This document shows positions 3 through 60,229 of a stretch of 64,000 bases of DNA, one piece after another; positions within the stretch are counted from its first letter, which is position 1, and every line of letters starts with the position of its first letter. The translations under genes were made by a program, and so were the position numbers. The DNA comes from a virus. The stretch lies in IMG/VR virus record IMGVR_UViG_3300028361_000023, positions 9,817 to 73,816 of that record; one strand, written 5' to 3'. The notes beneath the pieces were generated by a model that saw only the letters and a program-made list of their open reading frames with translations, did not search any database and was not told the DNA's origin.

Positions 3-3000
3 AAAGTTCTTACCGAATTTAACGAAGAATTTGCTTTAGACGTTAATACTAAAGATTTTGATGATAGTAAAAGATTTAAAGAAAGTACTTTAAAAGGAGA
101 ACAAGATTTAAAAAACAAAATAAATCAAATAATTAAAACACCAAAAGAACAAAGTTACTCTGGTTTTGATGTTTATTTTGATTTTCGTCAAATTGCTGGA
201 AAATTACATAGACATTTACAAAATACTAATAATAAAAATTTTATAAATAACTTTAGTGATCTTATTTTAATAGATAAAAGTTATGAAAAAATATTAAATA
301 AAGTTAATGAAGATGAAAATTTTAAAATAAAGTTAGCTAATTTTACAAATGTAGAATATATACAACCTAATCTTGATATAATTACTGTAAATTCAAAAGG
401 AATTACAAGTTACAAAACAGAAGATGAAACAAAAGGACAACAACCTGGAATTAAACTTGCTAATAGTTGGATAAATGAATATAAAAAAATAGTAACTATC
501 CGTGATTTACAAAAAGAAAATTTTTTAGACGAAATAACTGACATAGAAAAAGAATTTAAACAACATTTAATAGCAGAAGATTATAATAATGCTGCTAAAA
601 CTTTAGTAGAACTTTTTGCAAATATTAATATAAATATAACTAAAAATGATTTATCTAAATTTATAAAAATAAATCCTGAATTAATAATATCTGAATATTT
701 ATCACAACAATTTGATACTTATAAAGCATTTAAAGACTACGCTATTTCTTATGAAGGTGGCGATACAAAAACTACTTATCCAAATATAAATAAATTATTT
801 AGTCCTTTAAATAATTTTGCTGTTGATATGAGTATTGTAAGTTCTGAAGAAAAAGAATTAAGATACGCAGATGTTAATCAAAATATGTCTAGTGCTGTTG
901 TTTCTAACTACCATTTAAGAAGATTTTTTAATACACTTAAAGGAGATAATGGTAAAGCTTTTCTTGTTGAATCGTTACTTGAAAAAGGTATACAACATTC
1001 TAATTGGTTAATTAGTGGTAAAATAATTATACCTCAATCAGACAAAACAGAAATCATATTTGATAGTAATGGTATACCTGTAATTTTTGATATAAATAAA
1101 GAAGTTGTAAATATTATGATAGACCAACCACTTGCAGGTTCTGTTAATAAATTTACTAGACAAGGTAAAACGTATGAAGATTTCGTAGAAAAAGATTCTA
1201 TGATATTGCAATTTGTAAAATACGTAACGAATAAAGAAAAACTAACTACTAAAACTACTGGTATGAGTATTATAAATATGAATACTCCGTCAGAAGGTAA
1301 AGGTTTTGATTTAACTGTTCCTATAACAACTGTTATACCAAATATGGTAAACGAATTAGAACGAATTGAAAAAATAAACCAACCTAAAGTAGTTAAAAAA
1401 ATAGACCAAAGAGGTCTGCCTATAGAAAGAATATTTTCTATAGATGAACAAAAAGAAGCTGCCTTAAAGTACTTATTTATAGAGACTGAAACAATAGATA
1501 ATAAAGTTGTAGAAAAAAGAAATAGTCCTATACTACAAGCTTTTATGAATATAGCTTTACAAGAAATAGAAAGAATACAAGAAGCTAATGAAGATTTTGG
1601 AGATATACTTGATGGAAAAACTACAGATAGAACTCTTGATATTCCTAAAATGCAAATGTTTTATGATTATAAAACAAAAACCACAGTTAAAAAAGACGGA
1701 ACTAAAATAACTACTTTAATAAAAGGTAATAAATTTAAATTTAATACTTTATCTTATCTAAATGATTTTTTAATTAAAGAAGACGTAGATATAAATAAAC
1801 TAACTAAACAAGACATTATAATAAATGGTGTTTACACTAAGTTAGGTAAAATGTTAAGATACGAAATAATTAAAAATATAGCTAACAAAAGTTTAAACGC
1901 TAGTAAACAATATACAAAACTATATCCTGAATTAAAAAGTTTAAACAAGAATATTGATATTTTTAAAAACGATGCTGCTGAATTTGTTTTAAATTACGAA
2001 ATTACTCAAAATGAATTAAGTAATTTTGTTACAGGTAAATTAGGAGAATTTAAGTCTGGTGTAGATTTTATTAAAAGAAACAAAAAAACAACTACATTAG
2101 GTAAACCTCAAAACGTAGAAAACGAAAACGAACATTATGTTAGTTTGAATTTAAAAGACATAATAGTTGTTAGTCCTAATTTTAATATTCCTATAGAAAT
2201 TACAGATGCACAATCGGTAATAACACTTGGATTATTTGAAGAAAAATCTAAAAGAAGAGGTGCTCTTACTCCTAAAAGAAAAGAAGCTATAGAAAATATA
2301 AAAAATGGAATTAAAACAACTGAACAACTAAACCAATTAAAAAACTTTCATACTTCTTATAGATTTGATAAAAAAATAAATGGTAAAGGTTTAAATAGAA
2401 GAGTATCTAAACAAGTTAAAAATAGTGAATTAGTTGTTCATTCTTCTATGTTTCCTGGAACTCAATTTGGAGAGTTTATGAAATATATAGAAGAATTAGA
2501 AGAAAAAATAGGTAAAAAAATTCAAATAAATGTAAGTTCTGGTCAAAAGCATGGTACTTTTAAAGAAGTAGATATAGTAGACAAAGATGGAAATTTAGAC
2601 CTTAATGATATTACTAAAGAATTATTAGAAACTAGTTTAGATAACAAATATTATAGTGATGAAACAGAACAACTTAGTTACGAAGCTGAAGAAAAAAACC
2701 ACGATAATAATATAGGTTCTCAATTACATAAAGTATTATTAACTAATCTTAGTAATGATGCTGTATATGAAATAGGAAATAAAAAACTTACTGGTCCAGA
2801 AGTTCAAAAATTAATAGGAGAATTACGTTCTATTGATGTTGAAAACGCAGCAAAAGAAGTTGTTAAAGATTTAGAAGACGAAAATGGAAATGTAACAGAA
2901 TTAAGTTTAGCTAGTTTTTTAAGAAATCACGGACTTAAACAAGATTGGGCTAATAATATATTAGATATGTTACAAGAAGACAAAGAAAGAGGACAAACAT

Positions 3001-6000
3001 TGTTACCTTTTTATTTTAGTAGTGTTAATACTAAGATACAACAAGCTCTTACTTCTTTGTTTACTAATAACGTACTTAAAGAAAAATTTAATGGAAGTCA
3101 CAAGTTTCAATTTGCTAATTTTTTAACAGATAAAAAACCTATAACAGAAAGTGAAATTAAAGAAGAAGATTCTTTTAATAGTATAACATGGATAAATGGA
3201 AAAGTAGAAGAACTAACTTCTACTATTTTAGATGGTGAAAGTAGATTACATGCAAAAGTACTTCTACCTTTTACTATGAAAGAATTTATGACTAGTGATG
3301 TTAAAAATCTTGACAAAAAAGCTTTACAAATGTTAGGTTATAGAATACCAACAGAAGGTAAATACTCTGTTTATAGTTTTGAAGTGGTAGGATTTTTACC
3401 TGAAGCTTTAGGTAGTGCTGTAGTTTTACCTAACGATTGGATTGCTTTATCTGGCTCTGATTTTGATATAGATAGTTTATATATTGTTTCTTATTATCTT
3501 GATAATGAAGGTAAAGTTATAGAATATTTAGATGACACTAATAGTACTGTAGAAGAAAGATTTTATAAAGTAAATAAACCTAAACAATTTGAAAAATCTA
3601 AAAAGTTAGTTGAGTTATTAGAAAATAAAAACAAAACAACAGAAGAATTACTTACACAAATAAGAGAAGAATTAGAAGTTAATTTTAATTTTAAAGACTT
3701 AAATAATAAAGAAATCATAAAGCTATTAAAAATAGAGAGCACTAAAAGAGTAACTACTATTGCGGAAGCAAAACAAGAATTACAAAAAGCAGAAGATAAT
3801 AACAATAATTTAGAAGCTGTTTCTATATCTAAAACTATTAAAAACCAAACAGAAACTCTTAATTATCTTAATGATTTAAAAAACTTTTTCTTTGAAAATA
3901 GTAAAGATATATCTCAAGAGACTAATAATCTTTTTGAAAAAGAAATAAAAATCTCTAATGCTCAAAAATTTGAAGAATTTAAAAAACTTCCTATATCTAA
4001 GCAAAATACTAAATTTGCTAGAAAAAATCTAGTATTAGAAAGTTATCAAGAAATTATTTTAAACCCTAATTCACATGCAGAAATCAAAGAAAGATCTAGT
4101 TTTGATTCTATAAAACAAAGTACTACTCGACTTGAAAATCTTTTAAAAAGTAAAAATAAAGAAGAACTTCATCCTTATGATTTTTTTGATCAATTAAAAA
4201 CTACTAGTTTAGTTCTTGCAGGTAAAAAACTTAAAGGGATGGCTGTTCAATTAAAATCTACTACTGATATAGCAAATGCAGTAGGAGGCATAACGTTAAG
4301 TAAACCTTTACAAATAAAACTTAGTAAAAATCGAATAAAAGAAGTAGGCATTAAAAACATTAAAAAAGTATTCGGCAATTCTTTTAACGAAACTACAAGA
4401 ATACTTACTTTAAGTACTATAGGTAAAACAACAACTGGAAGTAATGTAAATATTGATAATATTTTTATAACAGGATTAACTTCTCAAACTACAGCATACA
4501 CTCTTGATATTGTTAAAGAAGGAGGCATTCCTGGAGTTACTACAGATACTCTTACTACTTTTGTTTTACCTGCTATGTTAGGTTTAGAAAATTATGATTT
4601 TTCTATAATGTTACTTAATCAACCAATAATTAAGTATTATTTAACACTAGAAGATAATGAAAAAGGTCATTTTAATACAGGAAACTACGCTAGTAATAGT
4701 CTTTATAGAGATTATAATAATCTTATTAATAGGGCTAAAAACCCAGAAAGTAAATTTGATAAATATATTAAAAAAGAAGACAGAATTAAATTATTAGAAT
4801 TAAATACTGTTCCTGATATAGAAGAACTAGAGAAAAACATAACTATTCAAAAACAAGGAGCTAAAAAAACTTTATCTAATGCTAAATATATAGAATACTT
4901 AGAAAACCAAATAGCTTTATTTAATTATTTTTTATCTGTTCAAGATATTAGTAAAGACATAGCAAATTTAAACGAAGTATTAAGTTATGATAAAATAGGA
5001 GGTGGTCCAACTTTAAATACTACTGTAAATCAAACTTATAAAGTTGTAGATATTGAAGGTAAATTTAGTATTAATGGTATTGATTTAGTAGAAGCTATAT
5101 TTGGTGAAAATTCTGTTTATCCTATGTTAAAAACATTTAAAGAACAAGTAAATGATACTAGTTATAATTTGTTTAAAGATTTCTTTATAACAGAAGGTGA
5201 CACTGTAGTTTCAGAAATTGTTTCTACTGTAAATGGTAAAGATAATCAAGAAGCATTAAAAAAATACATAGTAAATGTTTTTCTTATAGGCAGACCTTCT
5301 AGTCCTACTTATTTTGGCGAACTAGAAAACGATATGATAAGTAAAAGAAGAATACTTAATCCAAAAAACAAAGAAAATATCTCTGCTTTTGATTATCAAT
5401 ACGTAAATATAACTGATTTAAGTCAAAAGAATTTTGAAGTATTTCAAAGTCTTACAACTTCTAATAAATTAGATTTAATTAAAAATCAAATAAGTAAATT
5501 AATTTCAGAAACACAATTATTTGATGGTATTAATTTTAATCCTGAAATTAGACTAAAGTATGATAAGTTAAATTTAGATTTAGATAGTGATGTTGATATA
5601 CTTATAGAAGAATATAAGAAAGCATTAAATTCTAGTAATCCTTTTGTTAAAAATTTAGCTTACGAATTAATAGGTTATGAATACCTTACAACTGGTTTAG
5701 AGTTCGGTAAAGGATTAGCTAAAATAATACCTGCTGAAGTTTTTAGACAAAAACAAAGTGTAGTTGGTAATTTAGACATAAATGGAACCCTTAGAGACAT
5801 ACATAACAAGCTTAAAAATAAAACATACCCTGATCTTTTTGACGTATTAGATGGTTTTTTAAGAAGCAATTATAGTAATGATACTCTTGTTCCTACTTTA
5901 AGCCGTGAAATTAAAGATAATATAAAAAAAGGAGTAGAAAAAGATACTATTTTTAATCTTGATGATTTACCTATAAAAATACAAAAAAATACAATATTTA

Positions 6001-9000
6001 AATATGTAAATAAAGACCAAGAAACTACTGAACTATATAAAAAATTTACAAATGAAAATGATGTATTTTTTAGAGAAGTAAATAAATTAGAAAAATTTGA
6101 AAAAGGGGATGAAAGTTATTATAAACCTAATAATACAGTTAATACTGCTGATACTTTTATGGATAACTTTCAAGAATCTTTATTACATAACAACAATGAA
6201 GCAGTAAGAGAAGCTTTAGTTAAGCAATTTGAAGCTGCTAATTATTCTAAAATAACAGGAGAGTTAGAACATTTTACTAAAGAATTTTTTCATAGGTCTA
6301 TAAAACAAGATTTTACTAAACTAACTGAAAGAGAATTATACTTATCTATTTATGGTAATATAAAGAAAAAACCTTTATTACAAGATATAGTAATGGTTGA
6401 AAATATTCAAATTAATAAATTACCACTAAGTGATCTTGCAAAACTAGCTAAAAGATTTGAGGATAAGTTAGATTTAAGTGATATTGATTTAGTTTCTTTA
6501 CCTGTTTATAAAAAAATAGAAGAACTAGATACCGAAGGTTTATATAGAGGATTACTTCAAATATATTTATACAATCAAGAAAAATCTATATTTCTTAAAG
6601 ACAAACTTGATAAATTAAATATAGATGAAAATACTCTTAATAATCCAAGTAGTAAAAAAGAAGCTACAAAAATATTAGACGAATTAAAAAGATTTGTAGA
6701 AAGTTATAAAGATTTTGAAAATCTTAAATTTTATAAACAAGAAGAAGATACAAATAAACTAAATATACTTCAACAAAAAATAAATACAGTTATAGGTAAA
6801 ATTCAAGATCAAAAAAATCAAATAGAAAATCTTGATGCTAATAGAGATATTAAATTTACCCAACTGCTTGTAGAACTTTACAAGAAAAACTCAACACAAG
6901 ACATAGGTAAAAACGATGAAGAAGTCAAAAATTTTGTAATAAATTCATTAAAGCAACTACACGATATAAGTTTTTTTGCTGAAAAAGGAGATACTATATT
7001 CGATTCTGGTCAAGCTTTTATTAGTATATTAGGAAAAGAAATAAGAACTAATATGGCAGAAGGAAATATAACACAACTTGACTTATTAAAAGAATGGAAT
7101 ACGATATATAAAAAAATAGGAAAAATAGAAAATATACTTGAAACAAAAGAAGTTACAGACGTAAAAGGAACTAGAACTATTAATACTGGTAAATGGGACA
7201 TAACTAAAACAGATGCTATAGGAAAAGAAGTTACAGCTTTTTTTGTTAAACTACAAAAATTAGCTATAGAAGTGTCTCCTGATGGAAGTATTGCACAGGG
7301 TTATTTACCTTCTATACCTAATTTAAAAGGAGACAGTTTAGATACTTTTATAAAAAATAGTTTATCTTATTATGATGATATTTCTTTAAATAATAAAAAT
7401 AATGTAAAAGACAGTTTAGGTACTAAATTTAGTAATATAACATTACCTTTTGATACTCTAATTGTTAAAAAGAAAAGTATAACTTATAGGAAACAAGAAA
7501 AAGACGAAAGTATAGGAGAATATAATTCTAGTGTAATACATGATGTATTTATAACTACTGGTAAAACTTTTAACAGTGTTAAAGACATTAGAACATATAA
7601 TAAACTTGTTGCTGATAGAAATAAAAAACTTAAAAGCGATCTTCATGGTGAAAATATAGACTATAATATGGCAGAAATTATTCCTATATTTATAGAAAAA
7701 ATTACACAAACTAAAAGTAAAGCAGATAATGTAGACTTAGCTAGACTTCTTGTAAATGAAGTTAAAAGCAGAAAAAATATCAAAAAATCTAGACATGAAA
7801 GTTACTTAAACTTAGCTGCTAAAAGGTTTTCTACAAAAGCAGAAGATACTGTAGATGGTAAAAATGCTAAAATAGTTGAACAACTCGATTGGATGCTTGA
7901 TAATACTTTTTATGACGATAAAAATAGAAGTGGAAACGATGCTACTAAATATGGAAGAGTTTTAAGAAACTACACATCTTTATTAGGTATGGGTTTTAAT
8001 GTTTTTAGTGGTCTTAATAACATTATTTATGGGCGTATGCAAACTGCTTTTAAAGCATTAGGTAAAGACGATTATTCTCATAAACATTGGAGAAAAGCAG
8101 GCAAATTATATTATAGAGATGGTGCTTTAGGTAGTTATATAGCAGATGCAGGAAGAAAAGATCAAAAAGTTACAAGTAAACAAAGCGGTATATTTAATTT
8201 ATTTAATATATTAAATAATCAAACTGAAGTTCCTGAACATGGTAAAATAGATCTTACAGCAGAAGAAGATAAGAATAGTATGAAAGCAATAGTTAAAAAT
8301 AATTTTTCTGTACAAATATTAAACAATATAGGAGAACATGCTTTACAAAATAAACTATTAATTGCAATGTTATTAAGTCATAAAATTGTAGATAATAGAG
8401 CAGTTAGTTTTAAACAGTTTATTAATAACAAACTTACTAAAGTTGAAGGTACTATAGAAGAAAAAAAGAAAATTATAGAGAACAACAAATCCGTAGAAAA
8501 AAAGGCGTTAGAAGAATTTGAAAAACTAGATAGTGTTTATAGTTTGTTTGAGTTTAATAAAGAAGAAGGTTATATTAATTGGGATAAAAGTAAACTTACT
8601 AAAAAAGCTTTTGGAGAATTAAGAGAAAAAATACTAAGAAAAAATCACGATCTTCATGGTATTTATAATCAAGAAGATTTATCTGTTATTCATGCTTATG
8701 AAATAGGTAGACTCGTTATGATGTTTCGTAAATGGATGAGACCTGGTTGGAATAAGCGTTTTGGTAGTCATTTTTTAAAAGAAGGTGGTTATAGAGAATT
8801 AGCACAAACTGAAGATAAGGGAACTTATACTAGTTTATATGAATTTGGTACGTCTGCCTATAGAGAAAATAATTTCTCTCAAAACCGTGAAGAGTTTAAT
8901 ACTTTAGCAGCAGTAAGTGCTCTAGTAAGAGATCATATTCTTTTTGTTAAAAATGCAGGTTTTCATTATAATAGTCTTTCTTATAACGATAGAGCTAGAG

Positions 9001-9431
9001 TTAAAGAATCTACAATAGAACTTGTTACGTGGTTTACAAGTATAGGATTATTTGCAGCACTTAAAGGGTGGGGAGAAGACGACGAAGAATTAAAAGAAGC
9101 TTATTTATATAATATGGGTGTTTATCAATTAGATAGATTATCTGTTGAACTCGGTACTTATACTCCTATATATGGTTGGTTTAATGAAGGTCTTAAACTT
9201 TCTGCTTCTCCTTCTGCTAATTCAAATACAGTTTTAAAATTAATAAAACTTATACAAGCTGGTGCAAATTTAAGTGATTTTGAGATTGATCCTACTGATG
9301 TATATAGAGGAGGTAAGTATAAAGAAGAACTTAAAGTTAAAATAAAAGCTATGCAATTAGTTCCTTTTGCTACTCAATATATGAGAATAAAATACCTTAA
9401 AGAAAATAACAAAGCTTTTGCGTTAATGTAA
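3..9431 (+). CDS. Giant virion-packaged RNA polymerase of crAss-like phages (5'-truncated, >3100 aa)
   Basis: The frame is open from base 3 with no stop before the listed Met at 828. It contains GYRIPTEGKYS...GSDFDIDSLY (DFDID at 3459-3473), the catalytic motif of crAss-like RNAPs such as phi14:2 gp66. Confidence 0.93.
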   Translation, partial: KVLTEFNEEFALDVNTKDFDDSKRFKESTLKGEQDLKNKINQIIKTPKEQSYSGFDVYFDFRQIAGKLHRHLQNTNNKNFINNFSDLILIDKSYEKILNKVNEDENFKIKLANFTNVEYIQPNLDIITVNSKGITSYKTEDETKGQQPGIKLANSWINEYKKIVTIRDLQKENFLDEITDIEKEFKQHLIAEDYNNAAKTLVELFANININITKNDLSKFIKINPELIISEYLSQQFDTYKAFKDYAISYEGGDTKTTYPNINKLFSPLNNFAVDMSIVSSEEKELRYADVNQNMSSAVVSNYHLRRFFNTLKGDNGKAFLVESLLEKGIQHSNWLISGKIIIPQSDKTEIIFDSNGIPVIFDINKEVVNIMIDQPLAGSVNKFTRQGKTYEDFVEKDSMILQFVKYVTNKEKLTTKTTGMSIINMNTPSEGKGFDLTVPITTVIPNMVNELERIEKINQPKVVKKIDQRGLPIERIFSIDEQKEAALKYLFIETETIDNKVVEKRNSPILQAFMNIALQEIERIQEANEDFGDILDGKTTDRTLDIPKMQMFYDYKTKTTVKKDGTKITTLIKGNKFKFNTLSYLNDFLIKEDVDINKLTKQDIIINGVYTKLGKMLRYEIIKNIANKSLNASKQYTKLYPELKSLNKNIDIFKNDAAEFVLNYEITQNELSNFVTGKLGEFKSGVDFIKRNKKTTTLGKPQNVENENEHYVSLNLKDIIVVSPNFNIPIEITDAQSVITLGLFEEKSKRRGALTPKRKEAIENIKNGIKTTEQLNQLKNFHTSYRFDKKINGKGLNRRVSKQVKNSELVVHSSMFPGTQFGEFMKYIEELEEKIGKKIQINVSSGQKHGTFKEVDIVDKDGNLDLNDITKELLETSLDNKYYSDETEQLSYEAEEKNHDNNIGSQLHKVLLTNLSNDAVYEIGNKKLTGPEVQKLIGELRSIDVENAAKEVVKDLEDENGNVTELSLASFLRNHGLKQDWANNILDMLQEDKERGQTLLPFYFSSVNTKIQQALTSLFTNNVLKEKFNGSHKFQFANFLTDKKPITESEIKEEDSFNSITWINGKVEELTSTILDGESRLHAKVLLPFTMKEFMTSDVKNLDKKALQMLGYRIPTEGKYSVYSFEVVGFLPEALGSAVVLPNDWIALSGSDFDIDSLYIVSYYLDNEGKVIEYLDDTNSTVEERFYKVNKPKQFEKSKKLVELLENKNKTTEELLTQIREELEVNFNFKDLNNKEIIKLLKIESTKRVTTIAEAKQELQKAEDNNNNLEAVSISKTIKNQTETLNYLNDLKNFFFENSKDISQETNNLFEKEIKISNAQKFEEFKKLPISKQNTKFARKNLVLESYQEIILNPNSHAEIKERSSFDSIKQSTTRLENLLKSKNKEELHPYDFFDQLKTTSLVLAGKKLKGMAVQLKSTTDIANAVGGITLSKPLQIKLSKNRIKEVGIKNIKKVFGNSFNETTRILTLSTIGKTTTGSNVNIDNIFITGLTSQTTAYTLDIVKEGGIPGVTTDTLTTFVLPAMLGLENYDFSIMLLNQPIIKYYLTLEDNEKGHFNTGNYASNSLYRDYNNLINRAKNPESKFDKYIKKEDRIKLLELNTVPDIEELEKNITIQKQGAKKTLSNAKYIEYLENQIALFNYFLSVQDISKDIANLNEVLSYDKIGGGPTLNTTVNQTYKVVDIEGKFSINGIDLVEAIFGENSVYPMLKTFKEQVNDTSYNLFKDFFITEGDTVVSEIVSTVNGKDNQEALKKYIVNVFLIGRPSSPTYFGELENDMISKRRILNPKNKENISAFDYQYVNITDLSQKNFEVFQSLTTSNKLDLIKNQISKLISETQLFDGINFNPEIRLKYDKLNLDLDSDVDILIEEYKKALNSSNPFVKNLAYELIGYEYLTTGLEFGKGLAKIIPAEVFRQKQSVVGNLDINGTLRDIHNKLKNKTYPDLFDVLDGFLRSNYSNDTLVPTLSREIKDNIKKGVEKDTIFNLDDLPIKIQKNTIFKYVNKDQETTELYKKFTNENDVFFREVNKLEKFEKGDESYYKPNNTVNTADTFMDNFQESLLHNNNEAVREALVKQFEAANYSKITGELEHFTKEFFHRSIKQDFTKLTERELYLSIYGNIKKKPLLQDIVMVENIQINKLPLSDLAKLAKRFEDKLDLSDIDLVSLPVYKKIEELDTEGLYRGLLQIYLYNQEKSIFLKDKLDKLNIDENTLNNPSSKKEATKILDELKRFVESYKDFENLKFYKQEEDTNKLNILQQKINTVIGKIQDQKNQIENLDANRDIKFTQLLVELYKKNSTQDIGKNDEEVKNFVINSLKQLHDISFFAEKGDTIFDSGQAFISILGKEIRTNMAEGNITQLDLLKEWNTIYKKIGKIENILETKEVTDVKGTRTINTGKWDITKTDAIGKEVTAFFVKLQKLAIEVSPDGSIAQGYLPSIPNLKGDSLDTFIKNSLSYYDDISLNNKNNVKDSLGTKFSNITLPFDTLIVKKKSITYRKQEKDESIGEYNSSVIHDVFITTGKTFNSVKDIRTYNKLVADRNKKLKSDLHGENIDYNMAEIIPIFIEKITQTKSKADNVDLARLLVNEVKSRKNIKKSRHESYLNLAAKRFSTKAEDTVDGKNAKIVEQLDWMLDNTFYDDKNRSGNDATKYGRVLRNYTSLLGMGFNVFSGLNNIIYGRMQTAFKALGKDDYSHKHWRKAGKLYYRDGALGSYIADAGRKDQKVTSKQSGIFNLFNILNNQTEVPEHGKIDLTAEEDKNSMKAIVKNNFSVQILNNIGEHALQNKLLIAMLLSHKIVDNRAVSFKQFINNKLTKVEGTIEEKKKIIENNKSVEKKALEEFEKLDSVYSLFEFNKEEGYINWDKSKLTKKAFGELREKILRKNHDLHGIYNQEDLSVIHAYEIGRLVMMFRKWMRPGWNKRFGSHFLKEGGYRELAQTEDKGTYTSLYEFGTSAYRENNFSQNREEFNTLAAVSALVRDHILFVKNAGFHYNSLSYNDRARVKESTIELVTWFTSIGLFAALKGWGEDDEELKEAYLYNMGVYQLDRLSVELGTYTPIYGWFNEGLKLSASPSANSNTVLKLIKLIQAGANLSDFEIDPTDVYRGGKYKEELKVKIKAMQLVPFATQYMRIKYLKENNKAFALM

Positions 9432-16975: not shown

Positions 16976-17830
16976 TTAAAATATGTACCTAATAATACAC
17001 CATTTAATATGTTTATTATGTATTTGTTTAAATTGTTGAATATAATTAAATTTAAGATAACTTTTATATCTTAAATTTCTTCCTCCATATTGTGATTGTT
17101 TATATTCTTGTAACGAAGGTTGCCATAATATTTTTTCTGATTTATTATTAGAATCAACATTAGCTATATGTTTTTTATCGTTATGAGTCAGAAAAATAAC
17201 TTCACATTTTACTTTATCTTTGTTTTTTACTAAATTATTAACCAGTATAAAAAGTTCTTCATAATCTTTTAACCATGTTTTATAAACAATAACAGGACTA
17301 AAATTTATATGAACATCATAACCAGCTTTAATAAAAATATCAATAGCTTTTATTCTTTCTATAATTAAAGAAGTATTAGGTTCTACTAATTTTCTAAGAA
17401 CTTCTGGCATTAAACTAAACCTAATTCTAATCTTATTATTAGGATTATAGTTAAGAAATTCTTTTGGAACATATTTAGTAGCAAAAGTGGCTTTTGCTTT
17501 TGGATGATTTTTAAAAAAATTAAATATACTTTTCCAATCATAATATTTATTATGTAGTGCAAAATCTTCATTACAACTTATATCATAAGTTACAAAATCA
17601 GAATCAGTTTGGTTAGGTTTTTCTACTTCACAAAAAGCTACGTGAGTATTAATTGTACTTAATATTTGTGTAATATTAGTAGCAACAGTTAATCCTTCAG
17701 GCTTATGTCTTTTCATATAACAATAATGACAATTATATAAACAACCAAAACCAAAAGAAGGACTAATATAATCACTACTCCTACCACTAAATCTAATTTT
17801 CATAGATTTTCTATTTACTTTTTCTATCAT
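16976..17830 (-). CDS. Spore photoproduct lyase-family radical SAM protein
   Basis: GCLYNCHYCY (CxxxCxxC), DISCNED, FATK, RIRFSL, EPNTS..ERI.A and GYDVHINFSPVI. Confidence 0.87.
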   Translation of the reverse strand: MIEKVNRKSMKIRFSGRSSDYISPSFGFGCLYNCHYCYMKRHKPEGLTVATNITQILSTINTHVAFCEVEKPNQTDSDFVTYDISCNEDFALHNKYYDWKSIFNFFKNHPKAKATFATKYVPKEFLNYNPNNKIRIRFSLMPEVLRKLVEPNTSLIIERIKAIDIFIKAGYDVHINFSPVIVYKTWLKDYEELFILVNNLVKNKDKVKCEVIFLTHNDKKHIANVDSNNKSEKILWQPSLQEYKQSQYGGRNLRYKSYLKFNYIQQFKQIHNKHIKWCIIRYIF

Positions 17831-37925: not shown

Positions 37926-38564
37926 TTATCCTTTATAGAATAACAATTTAACAAAGTTCATTTGAGAATCTAAACCCGTATTAACCGCATGACTAAACAA
38001 TCTTTGAGTGTTTTGATTTTTATCTCTACTTTCATTAAAAGCATTAGCAGCATTTAATACTTTAGCAAAACTAGTTTTAATAAATTCAACTTTTTCATCT
38101 CCACTTGGATTAAATGTAAGTCCGACTAATTTACCACCAAAAGTTTCATGAAGATTAGTTTCGTCTTTACTTTCTTGTATTGTTTCTTTTTCAGTAGTTG
38201 TAGAAGTAGTTGTAGAAGTAAGCATTGGAATACAAGCTTCGACTATACTTTTAAATATAAAATCTTTAGCTTTTTCTTTATTTTCGAGTTTATCATAAGG
38301 AATTAAACTAGGATGAGTTTTCTTTATCAAGTCTTTTTCTGTACCATAAACAAAACCATCTTCTATTTTAAATTTCATCCAATTTTCGTGCATTTCAGCA
38401 GCAGTAACATTAGGGTTATCTATTCGGTATTTAACACTATTAACAGCACTATCTTTAATATTTTGAGAAACATTATCCCAATCTACTTGGCTATTGTCTC
38501 CTAAACTTTCACAATAGCCTTTATTGGCTTGGTGAGCGATTTTTGCTATGTCTATTATATTCAT
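37926..38564 (-). CDS. RyR-domain protein fused to an Acb2/Tad1-like helical hairpin
   Basis: HENWMKFKIEDGFVYGTEKD..KKTHPSLIPYDKL..KEK.KD is a RyR repeat. A TSTT linker follows, then C-terminal VGLTFNPSGDEKV...RLFSHAVNTGLDSQMNFVK. Likely start MNIID at 38564. Confidence 0.8.
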   Translation of the reverse strand: MNIIDIAKIAHQANKGYCESLGDNSQVDWDNVSQNIKDSAVNSVKYRIDNPNVTAAEMHENWMKFKIEDGFVYGTEKDLIKKTHPSLIPYDKLENKEKAKDFIFKSIVEACIPMLTSTTTSTTTEKETIQESKDETNLHETFGGKLVGLTFNPSGDEKVEFIKTSFAKVLNAANAFNESRDKNQNTQRLFSHAVNTGLDSQMNFVKLLFYKG

Positions 38565-38568
38565 AATA

Positions 38569-38597
38569 CAAATGTAATCTTTTTTACTAAAATGCAA
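38569..38597 (-). promoter_or_regulatory. Bacteroidota sigma-70 promoter (TTG-N18-TACATTTG)
   Basis: The -7 element ends 4 nt before the ATG at 38564. Confidence 0.65.
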
Positions 38598-38635
38598 CAT
38601 TATTATATACTATTTTTAAAAAATTTTAAAGAAAT

Positions 38636-47255: not shown

Positions 47256-48737
47256 ATGAACAATGCAAGATTGGTCTTTGGTCAAAACTTTGATTCCAAA
47301 GGACACACAAACGAAAATAGTTTAGCTGCTGCTAGACTAACTGAACCAGATAAGATTAACAAAACGTTAACTTATCTTCAAGGAAAAGATAGTGATAGAT
47401 TTCCGTTAACTTTCTTAACAGAAGGACAAACAAAAGGTAACAAAGGTATTGGTATTAATGATATTCAATATACTTGGGATTTTATTGAGCAAATGGATAA
47501 AGCTGACGGAGTTGTTAGTAGTAATTATACAATGACAAGTACACCGGGTAAGTCTGGTTCTGAAGTTGAAGTTACAATGAAAACTAGATGGCTTAAACAT
47601 CAACATACTGTTGTAGCTGAAAATGGAACTCGTGCTAGAATTGTTGCTATGCCTATTAAAGTAAGTAATGGTTGGTTATATAGATTTACTCTTAAATCTA
47701 TGAATTCTGAAGATTATATTGCTCCTTATTTATTACAAACTGGAGCTAAATGGGCAATGGAAGGTCCAGGTACTGTTTCTGAAAGTTTATCTCATGGTAA
47801 TGAAAGTAATATTGTTACTCCTGGTAAACTTACTAATCAGATAAGTGTATTAAGAAAATCTTATCATATTGCTGGTAATGTTGGTAATAAAGTAGTTGAA
47901 TGTTATTTACCTAAAAAAGGAGGAGGTAATAGTAAACTATGGATGCCTTTTGAAGAGTATCAACACGAAATGGTATGGAAACAACATTGTGAAGAACATT
48001 CTTGGTATTCTGAATATAACAGAGATAGTAAAGGAAGAATAACAGATATAGACGAAGAAACAGGTCTTCCTATTCCTGAAGGTGCTGGACTTATAGCTCA
48101 AATACCAAATCAAGATACTTATAGTTATCTTACTGCTGAAAAACTAGATAAAACAGTTTTATCTGTTATGTATGGTAGAAACGACGGTATTGGTGCTAGA
48201 GATATAGTTCTTTATACTGGTATTGGGGGGGAAAGAGAGTTTGATAGAGCACTTAAAGATAAAAGTGCAGGAGTTTCTCAAATAATCGGTGATAAATTTG
48301 TAACTGGTTCTGGTTCTACTCTTATGTATGGCGGTTACTTTAACGCATATAAAACCCGTGAAGGTAATAGAATAATTGTTAAACGTCTTGGTATTCTTGA
48401 CCACGGTAGTAGAGCAAAAGTTGCACCTAAACATCCCGAAACAGGTTTGCCTATAACTTCTTACAATATGTATTACGTAGATCAAACTGTATATGATGGA
48501 GTACCTAATATTAGAATGGTACACCAAAAAGGTAGAAGTCTTATAAGAGGTGTAGAACAAGGTATGGCTCTTAAAGGCGGAACTTCTTTTGCCGATTATG
48601 GAGGTAATGCGACCAATTTAAATCTTTCTACTGGTCAAGATAAAACTAGTATTCACTTCCTTAAAACAAGTGGAATACAACTTAATAGAAATTCTCATTG
48701 TTTTTCTTTAGAAATGGATATATCTATCGCAGTTTAA
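47256..48737 (+). CDS. Major capsid protein
   Basis: 493 aa with TNENSL, FPLTFLTEG, NQISVLRKS, GAGL..QI and LYTG.GG.REF motifs; followed by a strong terminator. Confidence 0.92.
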   Translation: MNNARLVFGQNFDSKGHTNENSLAAARLTEPDKINKTLTYLQGKDSDRFPLTFLTEGQTKGNKGIGINDIQYTWDFIEQMDKADGVVSSNYTMTSTPGKSGSEVEVTMKTRWLKHQHTVVAENGTRARIVAMPIKVSNGWLYRFTLKSMNSEDYIAPYLLQTGAKWAMEGPGTVSESLSHGNESNIVTPGKLTNQISVLRKSYHIAGNVGNKVVECYLPKKGGGNSKLWMPFEEYQHEMVWKQHCEEHSWYSEYNRDSKGRITDIDEETGLPIPEGAGLIAQIPNQDTYSYLTAEKLDKTVLSVMYGRNDGIGARDIVLYTGIGGEREFDRALKDKSAGVSQIIGDKFVTGSGSTLMYGGYFNAYKTREGNRIIVKRLGILDHGSRAKVAPKHPETGLPITSYNMYYVDQTVYDGVPNIRMVHQKGRSLIRGVEQGMALKGGTSFADYGGNATNLNLSTGQDKTSIHFLKTSGIQLNRNSHCFSLEMDISIAV

Positions 48738-51993: not shown

Positions 51994-52031
51994 AAATCAA
52001 AGGAACTACTAAGTAATAGTTCCTTTGATTT
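51994..52031 (+). terminator. Rho-independent terminator
   Basis: AAATCAAAGGAACTA...TAGTTCCTTTGATTT. Confidence 0.8.
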
Positions 52032-54573: not shown

Positions 54574-54948
54574 ACAATTATGATAGCTAAAGTATTTAAA
54601 GAAAATAATCAAATTTTTGAAATATTTAATTCGATAATAGAAAATACAGAATTAAAACTAACTACACTTAGTATTATTGAACGTTTACCTTTTGTAAATT
54701 ACAAAGATGAAGATTTATTAGATAATAATAAAGTAAAAATAATTTCTGTAGATGATACACTATTAAAAAATAGAAATTATTATTTAATCGAATTTAAACT
54801 AAATAAAAATGAAAATGAGCAAACAATATCAGACATTAAAATAGGAGATAAAACTATTAAAGGTACTACAAAAATAGATAAAGATATATATACTGCCTTA
54901 GATAGAAATTCTCTTTACTTTGTAAATGAAAAATTAACCATTATTTAA
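54556..54948 (+). CDS. Hypothetical protein
   Basis: 130 aa ORF. Confidence 0.65.
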   Translation: MENNLKTIMIAKVFKENNQIFEIFNSIIENTELKLTTLSIIERLPFVNYKDEDLLDNNKVKIISVDDTLLKNRNYYLIEFKLNKNENEQTISDIKIGDKTIKGTTKIDKDIYTALDRNSLYFVNEKLTII

Positions 54949-55319
54949 TGATAAATTTTTATCAATTATTAAACTTAGATATAAAAAAAACAGAAAATAT
55001 ACCTTTTAAACGTTTGTTTTTTCTCCCTATGAATAAAGAAATACATTTTGACAAAGGTATTATAGGAGAAAAAATCAAACAAACTGATGTTGAAATTTCT
55101 TTTAGAATGTTTATGAAAAAAGGCAGTAAATTTACTGCTCATTATCATAAAGATTGTACTGAAACAATATTGATTTATAAAGGAGCATTATTAGCTGTAG
55201 AATTAAATCAAAAAATAACCCCAAATTATTATTTAAAATTATCAAAAGGAGCAAAAAATACACACACAATATTAGCATTAGAAGATACTACTTTTTATGT
55301 TGAATTTTTAAAAGAATAA
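54948..55319 (+). CDS. Cupin-domain protein
   Basis: KGSKFTAHYHKDCTETILIYKG (HxH...E) and NTHTILALEDT motifs. Confidence 0.75.
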   Translation: MINFYQLLNLDIKKTENIPFKRLFFLPMNKEIHFDKGIIGEKIKQTDVEISFRMFMKKGSKFTAHYHKDCTETILIYKGALLAVELNQKITPNYYLKLSKGAKNTHTILALEDTTFYVEFLKE

Positions 55320-55323
55320 AATT

Positions 55324-55671
55324 TTGATAGAATTTATAAAAGAAAATTTTGACAGAATAATGGTTTTTGTAGGACCGATACTTACTTGGTTTATAATAAC
55401 AAAACCACATCAAAAAACAGATTTAAAAACTAAAGAAACACTTACACAAATGACCCAAACTGATGTAGTTGCAAAAAATTTAAAAATATATCAAACTTTA
55501 ATAGATGATATTGATGCTCAACATGAAAAAAGATATAAAGAAATAAAAAAACAACATCAAATAGAAATCATAGAAATTACTAAAAAACATCATAAAGTTT
55601 TACAAGAATTACATGACGAGTATAAAAACGAAATAAATAAACTAAGACAACTAATAAATAAAGAATTATGA
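55324..55671 (+). CDS. N-terminal TM plus coiled-coil protein (holin/antiholin candidate)
   Basis: One TM helix followed by a coiled coil; directly precedes the endolysin. Confidence 0.55.
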   Translation: MIEFIKENFDRIMVFVGPILTWFIITKPHQKTDLKTKETLTQMTQTDVVAKNLKIYQTLIDDIDAQHEKRYKEIKKQHQIEIIEITKKHHKVLQELHDEYKNEINKLRQLINKEL

Positions 55672-56648
55672 CTAAAGAATTTTTATTTAAAAGAGTACCT
55701 GCTTACATAACTTGTTTACCTATACTTATTATAAGTATAGGTCATTTGTATTTTAACAGAGAAGTTAATGATATGATTTTATATGATTTAGCTACATTAG
55801 CTGCTACCCTTTTTATATATCCTAGAGTTAGATTAAATGGATATGAACAAAGTCATTTGCTTGTTAAAAATATATTTTCTTATGTTCTTTTAGTAGTTAT
55901 AATAATACCAGCAAGTTTACTAGATTTCCTAAGTATTAAAGACGTTTCTGAAGGTTTTTTTACTATAATGACAGGAATAACTGCTGCTGTATTTGGTCTT
56001 AGTAAGTTAAATATAAGTAGAGATAGTGTTAAATTTGCTATAGGAAGTATTACCGATTTACAAAAAGAATACAAAACTAAAAAAAGTACAAATGATTTAG
56101 AAATTTTAAAACTAACAGAAAAAGATAAAAATAGTACAAATTTACCCGATGAATTAATAGATATAAAAAAGTACAATTTAAAAACATTAGCACAAGCGTC
56201 TTCTATTTTTGTTGGAGTTAAAGAAATTTCTGGAAATAAACATAACGCTATTATATTACAATTTGGTAAATGGGCAGGAGTTGATTGGTATCTAAAAGAC
56301 GAAACTCCGTGGTGTGCTGTTTTTGTAAATGCTATGAGATATGTAATAGGTAAAGATACAAATAAATCTGCTTTAGCTAAAAGTTTTTTAGATGAAGGAA
56401 TTAAAGTTAGTTGGAAAGAAGTACAACAAGACACTACTAATGTAATTTTAGTTTACCATAGAGGTACTTCTATAAATAGTTATAAAGGTCACGTTGATGT
56501 TTTAGAAAGTGTAGAAAATGAAACTTTAAATTTAATATCTGCAAATATTTCAAATAGTGTTTTACGAAAATCAATAAATTATAATGATTTAATGAGTAAA
56601 ACTATAAAAGACGGAACTAGAGAATTTATAGAATTTAGAAGATTATAA
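55668..56648 (+). CDS. Multi-TM protein fused to a TIGR02594/NlpC-P60-like peptidoglycan hydrolase
   Basis: About 4 hydrophobic helices in aa 10-112, then GVKEISG, DETPWCAVFVN (Cys), ALAKSF and GHV (His). Confidence 0.8.
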   Translation: MTKEFLFKRVPAYITCLPILIISIGHLYFNREVNDMILYDLATLAATLFIYPRVRLNGYEQSHLLVKNIFSYVLLVVIIIPASLLDFLSIKDVSEGFFTIMTGITAAVFGLSKLNISRDSVKFAIGSITDLQKEYKTKKSTNDLEILKLTEKDKNSTNLPDELIDIKKYNLKTLAQASSIFVGVKEISGNKHNAIILQFGKWAGVDWYLKDETPWCAVFVNAMRYVIGKDTNKSALAKSFLDEGIKVSWKEVQQDTTNVILVYHRGTSINSYKGHVDVLESVENETLNLISANISNSVLRKSINYNDLMSKTIKDGTREFIEFRRL

Positions 56649-56649
56649 A

Positions 56650-57540
56650 ATGAAAACAACGAAAAAAAACGTTTGTATTGTGGGCGGTGGCGGTTCTAAA
56701 GGAGCTTTTAATGTCGGTTACGTTTGTACCTTAAAACCCACCTATACTCATTATTTCGCTACTTCTACTGGTGCTTTAATGGTGCCATTAATGGCTTTAG
56801 AAAAATGGAAACAATTAGAAAATTTGTATATAAATATTTCTGATAAAGATATGGGATTAGATAAACTTAATAACAGAAGTAGTTTTTATATCTTATTTTT
56901 ATTTTTAAGAAAAGTAATAACTAAAAAAACAGGTTTAACTAATTATGGAAAAGTTTTAGAAAGCAAACTTCGTGAAAATTATTCGCAAACAGAACACGAA
57001 TTATTAGTAAAAAAAAATATAGAAATAAGAGTAACTACTACTTGTTTAAGTCATACTAAAGATAAAGTAAGTTATCATAGTAATCTAACTACGGATTATG
57101 AAAAATTTATAAAAGCTATAATTGCTTCTGCTTCTGTACCTTTAATAGCTGAATTAGTTCAAGTTAACGATCATGAATGGGATGCTGACGGTGGAATAAG
57201 AGAAACAGTACCTACTGAACCTTTAATAAAAGAAAAATTTGACGTTATAGATTTGTATTTAAGTTATCCTAAAGTAAAAAAAATTTTTACAAATAAAACT
57301 AAAAACATAGTAATGACTTTAGTTCAAGTGATAAAAGTATTACACGAAGAAGTAACTAAAAATGACCTTGATGTTCTTATACAAAAAAATATTATTCCTA
57401 ATAAAGTAATAAGACCTTCATATACGTTAACAACTAATGCTTTATCTTTTAATAAAGACAAAATGCAAAAGTGGTTTAATATGGGAAAAGAATTAGCTTT
57501 AACAGAAGTTAACTTTAAGAAAATAAAAAATGTTAAATAA
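56650..57540 (+). CDS. Patatin-like phospholipase
   Basis: GGGGSKGAF oxyanion loop, ATSTG nucleophile elbow, ASASVP and DGG. Confidence 0.9.
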   Translation: MKTTKKNVCIVGGGGSKGAFNVGYVCTLKPTYTHYFATSTGALMVPLMALEKWKQLENLYINISDKDMGLDKLNNRSSFYILFLFLRKVITKKTGLTNYGKVLESKLRENYSQTEHELLVKKNIEIRVTTTCLSHTKDKVSYHSNLTTDYEKFIKAIIASASVPLIAELVQVNDHEWDADGGIRETVPTEPLIKEKFDVIDLYLSYPKVKKIFTNKTKNIVMTLVQVIKVLHEEVTKNDLDVLIQKNIIPNKVIRPSYTLTTNALSFNKDKMQKWFNMGKELALTEVNFKKIKNVK

Positions 57541-57838
57541 AGACTATCGTATTAATATAAAAACAATATTAGTTATTTTTATAATTATAGCTTCAATATT
57601 CGGTTTTTTTTATTATATTGAAAACTTAAAGAATAAAAAAATAATTATAAAGTTAGAAGAAACTACAGAACAACTTGATTCTTTTAAAATAGATAAAAAA
57701 GTTAAAACCAGTTTAAATAAAATAAAACATCGTAATATAAAAAAAAATACAGAAATATTAAATGAAAAAATTACTAAAACTAACGATGCTTCTGATTCTA
57801 TCAAACTCGGCAATTTCTCAAAACGTTATAATAAATGA
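57530..57838 (+). CDS. Rz/i-spanin-like membrane protein
   Basis: N-terminal TM helix plus coiled coil; overlaps the next gene by 77 bp. Confidence 0.5.
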   Translation: MLNKDYRINIKTILVIFIIIASIFGFFYYIENLKNKKIIIKLEETTEQLDSFKIDKKVKTSLNKIKHRNIKKNTEILNEKITKTNDASDSIKLGNFSKRYNK

Positions 57839-58118
57839 TAGTACTACTATTATTAAAAATAATATTGTTGTTTTAATTGAAAAAGACCTACAAAATAAAA
57901 CAGATAGTATTTTTTATTTATTGGAGTTAAACAAAGAAAGTCTTTCTTATAGGCAGCTTTACGAGGAAGAAAATATTAAAAATTCTGCCTATAAGAAAAA
58001 TATATTAGTAAAAGAATCTACAATAAATAATTTAACTGTTAAGAATAATAATAAAAATAAAATTATATTTTTTTCTATTCTTTATCAAGCTGCATTAACT
58101 ATATTGATTTTTAAATAA
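57762..58118 (+). CDS. Exported coiled-coil protein with C-terminal TM (spanin-like partner)
   Basis: Signal peptide MKKLLKLTMLLILSNSAISQ, no Cys, hydrophobic C-terminus. Confidence 0.5.
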   Translation: MKKLLKLTMLLILSNSAISQNVIINDSTTIIKNNIVVLIEKDLQNKTDSIFYLLELNKESLSYRQLYEEENIKNSAYKKNILVKESTINNLTVKNNNKNKIIFFSILYQAALTILIFK

Positions 58119-58777
58119 TGTCTAATACTAAAACAATATCACAAATAGTAGAACTTATTGCAGATAGGTTTGGTAAAGCTGATGATTACCCTTTTAAACA
58201 ATCTATAGCTTTTAGTGTTAAATATTGGAGAGCTATACTTTTACGTAGATACTTAGAAAGAAATCCTTTTGATAAAAACCTATTACAAACAATTTGTGTA
58301 CCTTTAGAATACGGGAATACTGATTTATGTTGTGAAACTTTAACAGGTTGTAAAGGAATGATTTCTACAATAGACATACCTGAATCTTTACGAATAAGTA
58401 GAGATAGTCCTTTGTATTCAGTTAGTAAATTAAATTTTAAAAGTATTGATTATGCTTCTAAATTATCATGGGAAAGTAGAAAACACAGTAAATTTACTGA
58501 TAAAGATTTAAAGTACGACATAATTAACAAAAAAATATACATTAAAAATGCTACAAATTTAACTCATATTTATATTACTGATATTTGGATAGACCCGGAA
58601 ACTTTACCTGATTGTAACGATAATGATATAAATCCTAATTGTGATGGTAAAGCTTTTCCTATTCCTGGTGATATGATAATTACTATAATAGAAGGGATGA
58701 TTTCTTTAGATTTAAAAATTGTTAATAGTGACGATCAAGAAGTTGAAATAAGTAGCGATAAAACAGATAAAAATTAA
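58118..58777 (+). CDS. Tail ring protein
   Basis: crAss-like pattern RAILL...Q..C..L and W.DP...FPIP; gene position. Confidence 0.6.
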   Translation: MSNTKTISQIVELIADRFGKADDYPFKQSIAFSVKYWRAILLRRYLERNPFDKNLLQTICVPLEYGNTDLCCETLTGCKGMISTIDIPESLRISRDSPLYSVSKLNFKSIDYASKLSWESRKHSKFTDKDLKYDIINKKIYIKNATNLTHIYITDIWIDPETLPDCNDNDINPNCDGKAFPIPGDMIITIIEGMISLDLKIVNSDDQEVEISSDKTDKN

Positions 58778-59578: not shown

Positions 59579-60229
59579 ATGGCAATAACTAATAAAGTCA
59601 GTATTCAAAGGTTACTAGTAAATATAGAAGATACTTTTAACTTAAATAATGAGTCTTGGAAAAGTAAAGCTATTGAAACTATAGGTAGAGGTTTAGAAAT
59701 TATAAAAGTAAGTTCTATGTTTAAAAAAACATCTATAACTAAAAAGTTAATAGGAGGAAAAACATCTTTACCTTGTGATATAAAAACATTAATTCAAATT
59801 GAATATGAAGATTGTGAATTAATAATAAATAATAGAAGAAATTTTATAAAAGAATGTGCAAATGATTTACCTTGTCACCATATAGCCACGGGACAATTAA
59901 ATGGGAATATTTTACATACTAATATAGAACAAGGTGAAGTAGTTATTTATTACTTATCTATAGAAGTTGATGAAGAAGGTTATCCTTTAATTCCAGACGA
60001 TCCTATGGTATTTGAAGCTTTAGAATGGTATGTAATATATAAGTTTTTACTTGCTGGTAATAAACATCATACAATTAAAGATCATAGAGAAGCTCGTGCT
60101 ATGTGGGAAGAGTATTATCCACAAGCTAGAAATAGTGTCAAGCAACCTAGTGTTTTACAAATGACTAAATTTATGAATGTGTGGTTAAGTCAAAGTAATG
60201 ATTTTAGACAATTAGGAACTTATAATTAA
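59579..60229 (+). CDS. Tail tubular/ring protein (P22 gp4-like)
   Basis: LPCD and Y.SI.VDEEGYPLIPD....EALEWY motifs. Confidence 0.8.
   Translation: MAITNKVSIQRLLVNIEDTFNLNNESWKSKAIETIGRGLEIIKVSSMFKKTSITKKLIGGKTSLPCDIKTLIQIEYEDCELIINNRRNFIKECANDLPCHHIATGQLNGNILHTNIEQGEVVIYYLSIEVDEEGYPLIPDDPMVFEALEWYVIYKFLLAGNKHHTIKDHREARAMWEEYYPQARNSVKQPSVLQMTKFMNVWLSQSNDFRQLGTYN

Follow-up and report, generated by a model that had tools for sequence, protein, structure and literature searches.

The window analyzed here, a 64,000-nucleotide (nt) stretch of viral DNA, covers bases 9817-73816 of a linear 73.8-kilobase (kb) IMG/VR virus record that is rated 87% complete. Judged from its sequence, positions 55324-58118 of the window are a real lysis cassette, and a gene for a patatin-like lipid acyl hydrolase is embedded within it and not placed at its edge. 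The explanation that we favor, tentatively and with a little less than even confidence, is that this patatin acts as an accessory lipolytic lysis enzyme, which would be co-expressed with the cassette and would attack envelope phospholipids after the inner membrane has been breached. The patatin is sandwiched between the only wall hydrolase of the record that is recognized by Pfam and an Rz-like membrane protein, and its recurrence beside another type of endolysin in an unrelated phage, L042, is an independent point in favor. We infer the substrate, the membrane attacked and the contribution to lysis.

Lysis of Gram-negative bacteria is taught as the work of a holin, an endolysin and a spanin. 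Little is known of how the outer membrane is opened by phages that infect Bacteroidota, and in crAss-like phages the genes for lysis are poorly defined. A gene-context case in an uncultured phage, such as the one described here, may be regarded as a well-founded lead and not as a result.

Architecture of the cassette and its patatin

The original prediction had described a contiguous and tightly coupled order of five genes in this region, and the open reading frames (ORFs) are found exactly where it placed them: five tightly packed + strand ORFs fill 55324-58118, with each junction being either an overlap or a 1-nt gap. Gene 1 (55324..55671), encoding a membrane protein of 115 amino acids (aa), overlaps by 4 nt gene 2 (55668..56648), which encodes a 326-aa protein with transmembrane (TM) segments and a wall hydrolase domain. 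After a 1-nt gap follows gene 3, the 296-aa patatin (56650..57540), which overlaps by 11 nt gene 4 (57530..57838), encoding a 102-aa type-II membrane protein. Gene 4 in turn overlaps gene 5 (57762..58118; 118 aa) by 77 nt, and the stop codon of gene 5 overlaps by 1 nt (TAATG) the start of tail ring protein 2 (58118..58777, + strand; PF25702, E 4e-28). A terminator scan places a terminator-like hairpin on the + strand at 51994..52031, and from 52039 to the end of the window the ORF map shows + strand genes that all abut or overlap. Because of this hairpin and the gapless run of genes behind it, the cassette would lie within one long late (virion) operon, for which we infer co-transcription and timing.

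The patatin matches nearly the full length of the PF01734 model (positions 3-191 of 191) with an E of 3.7e-16 and a score of 60.3 bits, above the cut-off of 27.7, and the match is also found in a six-frame search of the record. Its oxyanion motif reads G12-G-G-G-S-K-G18, with G13, G14, G15 and G18 being invariant or near-invariant in alignments of 8 and 72 sequences. The nucleophile Ser39 is invariant across 72 homologues and lies in A-T-S-T-G, that is, in A-x-S-x-G and not G-x-S-x-G; the first position of this motif is Ala in the window patatin and in one of its two closest relatives (P0011) and Gly or Cys in other homologues, and activity with an A-x-S-x-G motif is plausible. The catalytic Asp180, in D-G-G, is likewise invariant in the 72 sequences. 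The AlphaFold2 model is confident (pLDDT 94, pTM 0.92) and has a patatin fold, and the motifs that had been read as intact in the original prediction (GGGGSKG, TSTG and DGG) indeed sit on invariant or near-invariant columns of a confidently modeled protein. Foldseek against the PDB returns CapV, CapE, PlpD and Pat17 (patatin-17) with probability 1.0 and template modeling scores of 0.55-0.73, as well as iPLA2-beta, also with probability 1.0. A profile of the patatin family matches PDB chains of PlpD, CapV, VipD and ExoU, chains that are reached by profile only, a direct sequence search of the PDB having given no match. There is no PHROG and no NCBIfam match, and neither a signal peptide nor a TM segment is seen in the translation and its hydropathy plot.

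The gene appears to be a long-term resident that is compositionally ameliorated, because its GC content (0.262), third-position GC content (0.141) and codon use fall inside the range of the neighboring late genes. A recent foreign insertion was rejected on the same grounds. An effector of a cyclic-oligonucleotide-based antiphage signaling system (CBASS), the role that CapV plays and with which the patatin had been compared, was also rejected: no PADLOC family, CapV included, matches at E <= 0.01, and no cyclase or other CBASS family occurs among the Pfam matches of the record's ORFs of at least 100 aa. CapV and CapE, which destroy membranes from the cytoplasm, share the patatin fold and are the best Foldseek neighbors in the PDB (template modeling scores 0.6-0.73), yet they are only 13-19% identical in sequence. 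CapV is thus a neighbor in fold and not the family to which this patatin belongs, and the analogy is not supported beyond that likeness.

Gene 2 combines two parts. Its N-terminal part has four hydrophobic segments (residues 13-29, 36-52, 69-85 and 96-112) followed by a Lys-rich linker, and residues 181-304 match TIGR02594 (E 2.6e-16; 60.1 bits, under the 70.55 cut-off), with a weak CHAP match in addition (E 0.0019; 19 bits against a cut-off of 26). The protein also matches phrog_1259 (E 5e-18), a family annotated as 'baseplate hub subunit and tail lysozyme'. With tblastn, the C-terminal domain matches 348 GenBank phage records, and residues 171-326 find TIGR02594/CHAP clusters in the structure atlas. 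By visual alignment, its catalytic PWC and GH motifs correspond to those of the endolysins of two cultured phages, Pseudomonas phage PA_LZ03 and Roseobacter phage CRP-403, while the GGNQGN motif of these endolysins reads SANISN in gene 2. On this evidence gene 2 clearly belongs to the TIGR02594/CHAP (NlpC/P60-type) hydrolase family, with a predicted activity, and it is probably a holin-like domain fused to an endolysin. The charges of its loops (+2, -1, +2, -1, +2) suggest a topology with both termini inside and the hydrolase domain in the cytoplasm, an assignment that comes from a simple hydropathy and charge rule and includes two weak segments (1.48 and 1.58). In cultured phages with the same endolysin family, the membrane proteins are encoded by separate genes or the endolysin has a single C-terminal TM segment.

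The remaining three genes encode small membrane proteins. Gene 1 starts with TTG (or possibly with the ATG at codon 13) and has a single N-terminal hydrophobic segment, residues 9-25, followed by a long, charged helical tail; family searches gave only chance-level matches. It is built like gp37 of CRP-403, a neighbor of the TIGR02594 endolysin, and like the 'holin-like' protein of Wolbachia phage WO as described in PMC9203015, and may be considered a candidate holin, antiholin or i-spanin-like component. The label 'coiled coil' for such tails was drawn from composition and not computed. Gene 4 has a TM segment at residues 12-28 (hydropathy 2.6) and a charged helical ectodomain and matches phrog_739, 'Rz-like spanin', at a weak E of 0.0023, so that it weakly fits the i-spanin pattern. 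Gene 5 begins with a signal-peptide-like N-terminus (MKKLLKLTMLLILSNSAIS) and, after a helical middle part, ends in a C-terminal TM segment (residues 101-117); its nearest atlas entries are unnamed viral clusters of about 110 aa (feature score 0.94-0.95). Because gene 5 contains no cysteine at all, and hence no lipobox, a lipoprotein o-spanin is ruled out, as is a u-spanin of the T1 gp11 type, despite the signal-like N-terminus and C-terminal TM segment. The overlapping spanin-like pair that had been proposed for genes 4 and 5 therefore holds for the overlap and, weakly, for the Rz-like character of gene 4; it fails for gene 5 as the o-spanin.

The ORF map of 54.5-58.2 kb contains no separate small multi-TM holin ORF, and no cassette protein matches a holin family in Pfam, PHROG or NCBIfam. 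Pfam scans of the record, which took in the cassette and its neighbors, 43 further mid-size ORFs and two giant proteins of 1836 and 4520 aa, found no peptidoglycan hydrolase besides gene 2.

The two cultured phages offer the closest parallels to this arrangement. After its tail genes, PA_LZ03 encodes a helical protein with a C-terminal TM segment, the endolysin, a 2-TM protein and a protein with a TM segment and a helix. CRP-403, also after its tail genes, encodes a TM-plus-helix protein, a helical protein with a C-terminal TM segment, an endolysin with a C-terminal TM segment and a TM protein. As in the window, a TIGR02594 endolysin with conserved NlpC/P60-type Cys and His residues is flanked by membrane proteins behind the tail genes, and the endolysin is flanked by helical proteins with C-terminal TM segments that resemble gene 5. 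The cassettes of both phages are without a patatin; the window adds one after the endolysin, together with the four-helix fusion. The membrane protein upstream of the PA_LZ03 endolysin (158 aa) and the endolysin itself (168 aa) sum to 326 aa, which is a curiosity only: the 158-aa protein is built differently, with one C-terminal TM segment, and no N-terminal similarity to gene 2 was seen.

Directly upstream of the cassette, in the same operon, lies a gene for a 123-aa cupin-like protein (54948-55319), with weak matches to a WbuC-family cupin (E 8e-4) and a 'cysteine dioxygenase' PHROG (E 1.5e-4).

Distribution of the patatin family

An exhaustive HMMER search returned 707 patatin representatives at E <= 0.001. 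The closest, P0011 and P0012, are 41% identical to the window patatin and are encoded on contigs (1.3 and 20.6 kb) of Logan assemblies. All remaining relatives are at most 34% identical, and those with names are from Formosa, Lewinellaceae and Chitinophagaceae. The family is mostly Bacteroidota-like and mainly chromosomal. In a maximum-likelihood tree, the window patatin groups with P0011 and P0012 (support 100/95), and labeled viral patatins occupy at least six separate positions; unlabeled metagenome rows of the tree may be viral too, and the number of acquisitions is therefore not countable.

The contexts of five phage lineages with members of the family were inspected. In the crAss-like phage described here, the patatin lies inside the TIGR02594 endolysin cassette. 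In L042, a 25.6-kb IMG/VR record with a GC content of 31%, it overlaps a peptidase-M15 endolysin. A group of jumbo phages (24 IMG/VR loci, L013-L036, in records of 50-195 kb that are 17-24% complete) has it directly upstream of a 102-aa gene, the terminase gene TerL and a T4-like portal, several members having tandem patatins. The huge phages LR756504 and LR756500 have it without a recognizable lysis neighbor, and in Rhodothermus phage RM378 it stands beside DNA polymerase.

The patatin of L042, P0013, is 33% identical to the window patatin over 295 aligned residues, and the 3' end of its gene overlaps the start of the M15 gene by 23 nt (14 nt from an alternative ATG). The 155-aa M15 protein matches 386 phage records in which it is annotated as peptidase M15 or endolysin, as well as, weakly, the zinc D-Ala-D-Ala carboxypeptidase 1LBU in the PDB. 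About 1-2 kb upstream there are three small ORFs with TM segments, which overlap one another. The phage is siphovirus-like, with a capsid protein that resembles those of Pseudanabaena phage Pan5 and of Polaribacter phages, and the patatin is its sole match to the proteome of the window. In both non-jumbo phages whose context is readable, the patatin touches an endolysin, and the two endolysin families differ. Under random gene order, direct adjacency to one given gene would be seen in about 2-3% of genomes, a figure that is an estimate and not a computed statistic. The adjacency of patatin and hydrolase, which recurs in the unrelated L042, thus appears to be more than chance.

The jumbo group shows no recognizable endolysin within the flanks inspected. 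The endolysin families M15_3 and Amidase_2 were not found in five of its records, which are 17-24% complete, so that this result is uninformative, and GenBank phages contain no match to the 2-TM protein encoded next to the patatin in L017. In two loci (L032:2395-5928 and L036:9257-13375) the TerL slot is taken by a gene for 1177-1372 aa that matches only intein-splicing/HINT and LAGLIDADG homing endonuclease families, and is probably an intein-bearing terminase. In L032, a GIY-YIG/NUMOD endonuclease gene precedes the patatin.

Neither the patatin, nor the alignment of its clade, nor the endolysin gave a DNA match in the viral-contig collection, and genome contigs gave no match in either of two queries. 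The alignment of 8 sequences contained no conserved stretch that was usable, and a hand-made DNA pattern (ASASVP...DGG) had six matches, all of them false positives. Among metagenome contigs, the clade query found two bacterial contigs with tandem patatins among ordinary genes. In these Bacteroidota-like contigs (L037:221-2034 and L038:2533-4325), a gene on the opposite strand, behind the conserved patatin pair, encodes a conserved membrane protein of 172-173 aa.

Possible roles of the patatin

If the patatin is an accessory lysis enzyme, the following course of events can be envisaged. Expression of the late operon would insert the four membrane proteins into the inner membrane while the patatin, having no signal, would build up in the cytoplasm. 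At a programmed time the membrane would be breached, the candidate holins being the four-helix domain of gene 2, gene 1, or both, and the wall hydrolase domain would then gain access to the murein. The patatin would reach the envelope phospholipids and cut their acyl esters, and the resulting lysophospholipids and fatty acids would destabilize the remaining membranes, above all the outer membrane, so that release would be completed or made faster.

Such an enzyme might be functionally equivalent to LysB in mycobacteriophages. LysB has a cutinase-like alpha/beta-hydrolase fold, cleaves the mycolyl-arabinogalactan ester and is without an export signal. As described in PMC5707550, LysB of phages Ms6 and D29 is an established lipolytic enzyme of the lysis cassette that attacks lipid linkages of the outer membrane; it carries out the third step of lysis, and efficient lysis requires it. 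The likeness lies in a lipolytic enzyme being encoded beside the endolysin, LysB being a serine esterase. The two differ in that the window enzyme has a patatin fold and a Ser-Asp dyad and would serve in an ordinary diderm host.

Several observations weigh against an accessory lysis enzyme. A cytoplasmic, unregulated phospholipase would risk premature death of the host, and no regulator is evident. Spanin-like genes are present, so the outer-membrane function may already be covered. With a completeness of about 87%, the record could also lack a region that encodes further lysis genes. In the jumbo group, the two huge phages and RM378, the patatin is located away from recognizable lysis genes. 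The nearest relatives of ring protein 2 (52% and 45% identity) are on contigs of 84,207 and 82,957 nt, and a profile search of a set of 5.8 billion proteins traced no patatin homologue to these contigs. The patatin is probably lineage-specific, and because it is not seen in these relatives, it may be dispensable for the phage lineage. The linkage between patatins and lysis genes that the original prediction expected from a survey of neighborhoods is thus borne out by the endolysin contact that recurs in L042, and not by the jumbo phages and RM378, where the patatin lies elsewhere, or by the contigs of the nearest ring-protein relatives, where none was detected.

An alternative is a role unrelated to lysis, with the patatin simply carried along in the late operon, for example for remodeling or scavenging of host lipids, superinfection exclusion, interference with anti-phage defense, or as a moron-type accessory gene. 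We consider this unlikely, though it deserves serious attention. It accords with the apparent absence from the nearest relatives, with the non-lysis contexts in jumbo phages and RM378, and with the family's mainly chromosomal location in Bacteroidota-like bacteria, where its members often stand as tandem pairs among ordinary genes. A literature search for phage-encoded patatin-like phospholipases also returned a paper on Burkholderia prophage elements (PMC2920897). Morons are usually located at the edges of modules and have their own signals. The patatin gene, in contrast, overlaps or nearly touches both of its neighbors within the cassette and is compositionally ameliorated, and in an unrelated phage a patatin again adjoins an endolysin, one of another family, which speaks against a mere passenger.

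The mechanism put forward in the original prediction was a different one, in which the patatin makes the membrane lesion itself: it would degrade inner-membrane phospholipid from the cytoplasmic face, replacing or triggering a holin. The murein would then become accessible to the endolysin, which the four-helix anchor would retain with its catalytic domain on the cytoplasmic side. The prediction named release of the tethered endolysin as a second possibility. The lack of a separate small multi-TM holin ORF around the cassette, the loop charges of gene 2, which would leave the hydrolase domain in the cytoplasm, and the lack of an export signal on the patatin all fit this proposal, and in PA_LZ03 a small 2-TM holin-like gene fills the slot after the endolysin that is occupied here by the patatin. 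Against it, the topology comes from the hydropathy and charge rule only, with two of the four segments weak, the four-helix domain is a plausible holin by itself, and a multi-pass anchor would not be freed by lipid hydrolysis. In L042, small TM ORFs that are possible holins coexist with the patatin. Furthermore, we know of no phage that times lysis by an enzyme. On balance we regard this mechanism as improbable.

A broader version of the same idea is something of a long shot. In some phages of Bacteroidota-type hosts, a cytoplasmic patatin might act as an 'enzymatic holin' and then dissolve the phospholipid leaflet of the outer membrane, making lipoprotein spanins unnecessary. If this were true, both timing and rupture would proceed via lipid hydrolysis and not via holin triggering and spanin-driven fusion.

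Finally, it is very improbable that the block is a virion entry (ejection) module whose virion-borne wall hydrolase and phospholipase help the tail to cross the envelope. In favor of this reading, tail ring protein 2 follows the block immediately in the virion operon, the gene 2 hydrolase falls in a PHROG annotated as a tail lysozyme, and entry as well as exit was weighed for the WO patatin by Kent et al. 2011 (PMC3173496). Against it, a four-helix hydrophobic protein and three more membrane-anchored proteins are unlikely cargo for a membrane-less tailed virion, the small TIGR02594 proteins of PA_LZ03 and CRP-403 form, by annotation or by position, endolysin cassettes together with the membrane proteins beside them, and the Pfam scans found no other endolysin in the record.

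Known lysis systems and the crAss-like phage

The cassette resembles the S-R-Rz/Rz1 genes of lambda in its succession of membrane protein, wall hydrolase and further membrane proteins and in its overlapping genes (spanin census, PMC6139136). It departs from the canonical holin-endolysin-spanin arrangement by its extra patatin, its endolysin fused to four helices and its lack of a separate small holin, and from canonical spanins in that the would-be o-spanin is without a lipobox cysteine.

The idea of a patatin-based lysis is not new in kind, as a patatin-based lytic cassette was proposed before for Wolbachia phage WO, without an experimental test (PMC9203015; PMC3173496). In WO the patatin adjoins a holin-like protein with a TM segment and a coiled coil, as well as the tail module (PMC9203015). 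Compared by description only, both systems place a patatin near a protein of less than 150 aa that has its TM segment at the N-terminus and continues as a charged tail, a build that genes 1 and 4 fit, and in both the cassette lies beside tail genes, the block in the window abutting those for the tail ring. The WO patatin differs in that it is proposed to stand in for the endolysin, peptidoglycan being undetectable in the host. The window patatin is encoded alongside a wall hydrolase and spanin-like genes, by a crAss-like phage of virulent type whose host presumably lives free in fresh water. Our full-text literature searches found patatins in lysis cassettes described only for WO, and nothing on the lysis systems of crAss-like phages. 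Further envelope-specific lysis factors are still emerging, as LysZ illustrates (PMC13123898).

If a phospholipase proves to be repeatedly wired to different endolysins in unrelated phages, the LysB principle would extend from the mycolata to ordinary diderms, as a third or fourth lysis step. The hypothesis for WO would gain a tractable counterpart, the gene set being of a size that can be expressed in E. coli or Flavobacterium johnsoniae. Users of endolysins against Gram-negative bacteria, whose outer membrane stands in the way, might find such enzymes of interest as well.

The position of lysis genes appears to vary within the Crassvirales, because in crAssphage ctbg_1 a GH108 endolysin cluster lies upstream of the terminase and not before ring protein 2. 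Two genes upstream of this endolysin, a 204-aa ORF (MH616963; L003:5623-6237) is labeled 'PI-PLCc_bacteria_like' by the depositors, a label that would make it a second lipid-directed enzyme in a lysis cluster of a crAss-like phage and that was not confirmed by Pfam.

By its gene content, the source of the window is a divergent crAss-like phage from lake water. This assignment follows from a crass-type major capsid protein at 47256-48737 (PF23898, E 3e-65), from tail ring protein 2 and tail ring protein 1 (59579..60229, + strand; PF24228, E 1.8e-25), and from a large terminase that is 31-36% identical to those of Crassvirales. The GC content of the window is about 25%. Its DNA is present in nine lake-water metagenome runs of 2017, and contigs from four lake runs are near-identical to it, being low-depth fragments of the same phage, with no deletion variants and no usable diversity among them. 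No RNA dataset is listed as carrying the stretch. With ring protein 2 or its alignment as the query, there was no DNA match in the viral-contig collection, and ring protein 2 had no match among metagenome contigs.

The two giant proteins of the record, encoded at L039:175-5685 (1836 aa) and L039:5685-19247 (4520 aa; window positions 3-9431 are part of the second), have zero Pfam matches and are presumably a crAss-type virion RNA polymerase or cargo proteins. Among the 43 mid-size ORFs, the Pfam scan gave a spore photoproduct lyase family match (E 9.5e-23) and a RyR domain match (E 3.6e-11), which are consistent with window positions 16976-17830 and 37926-38600.

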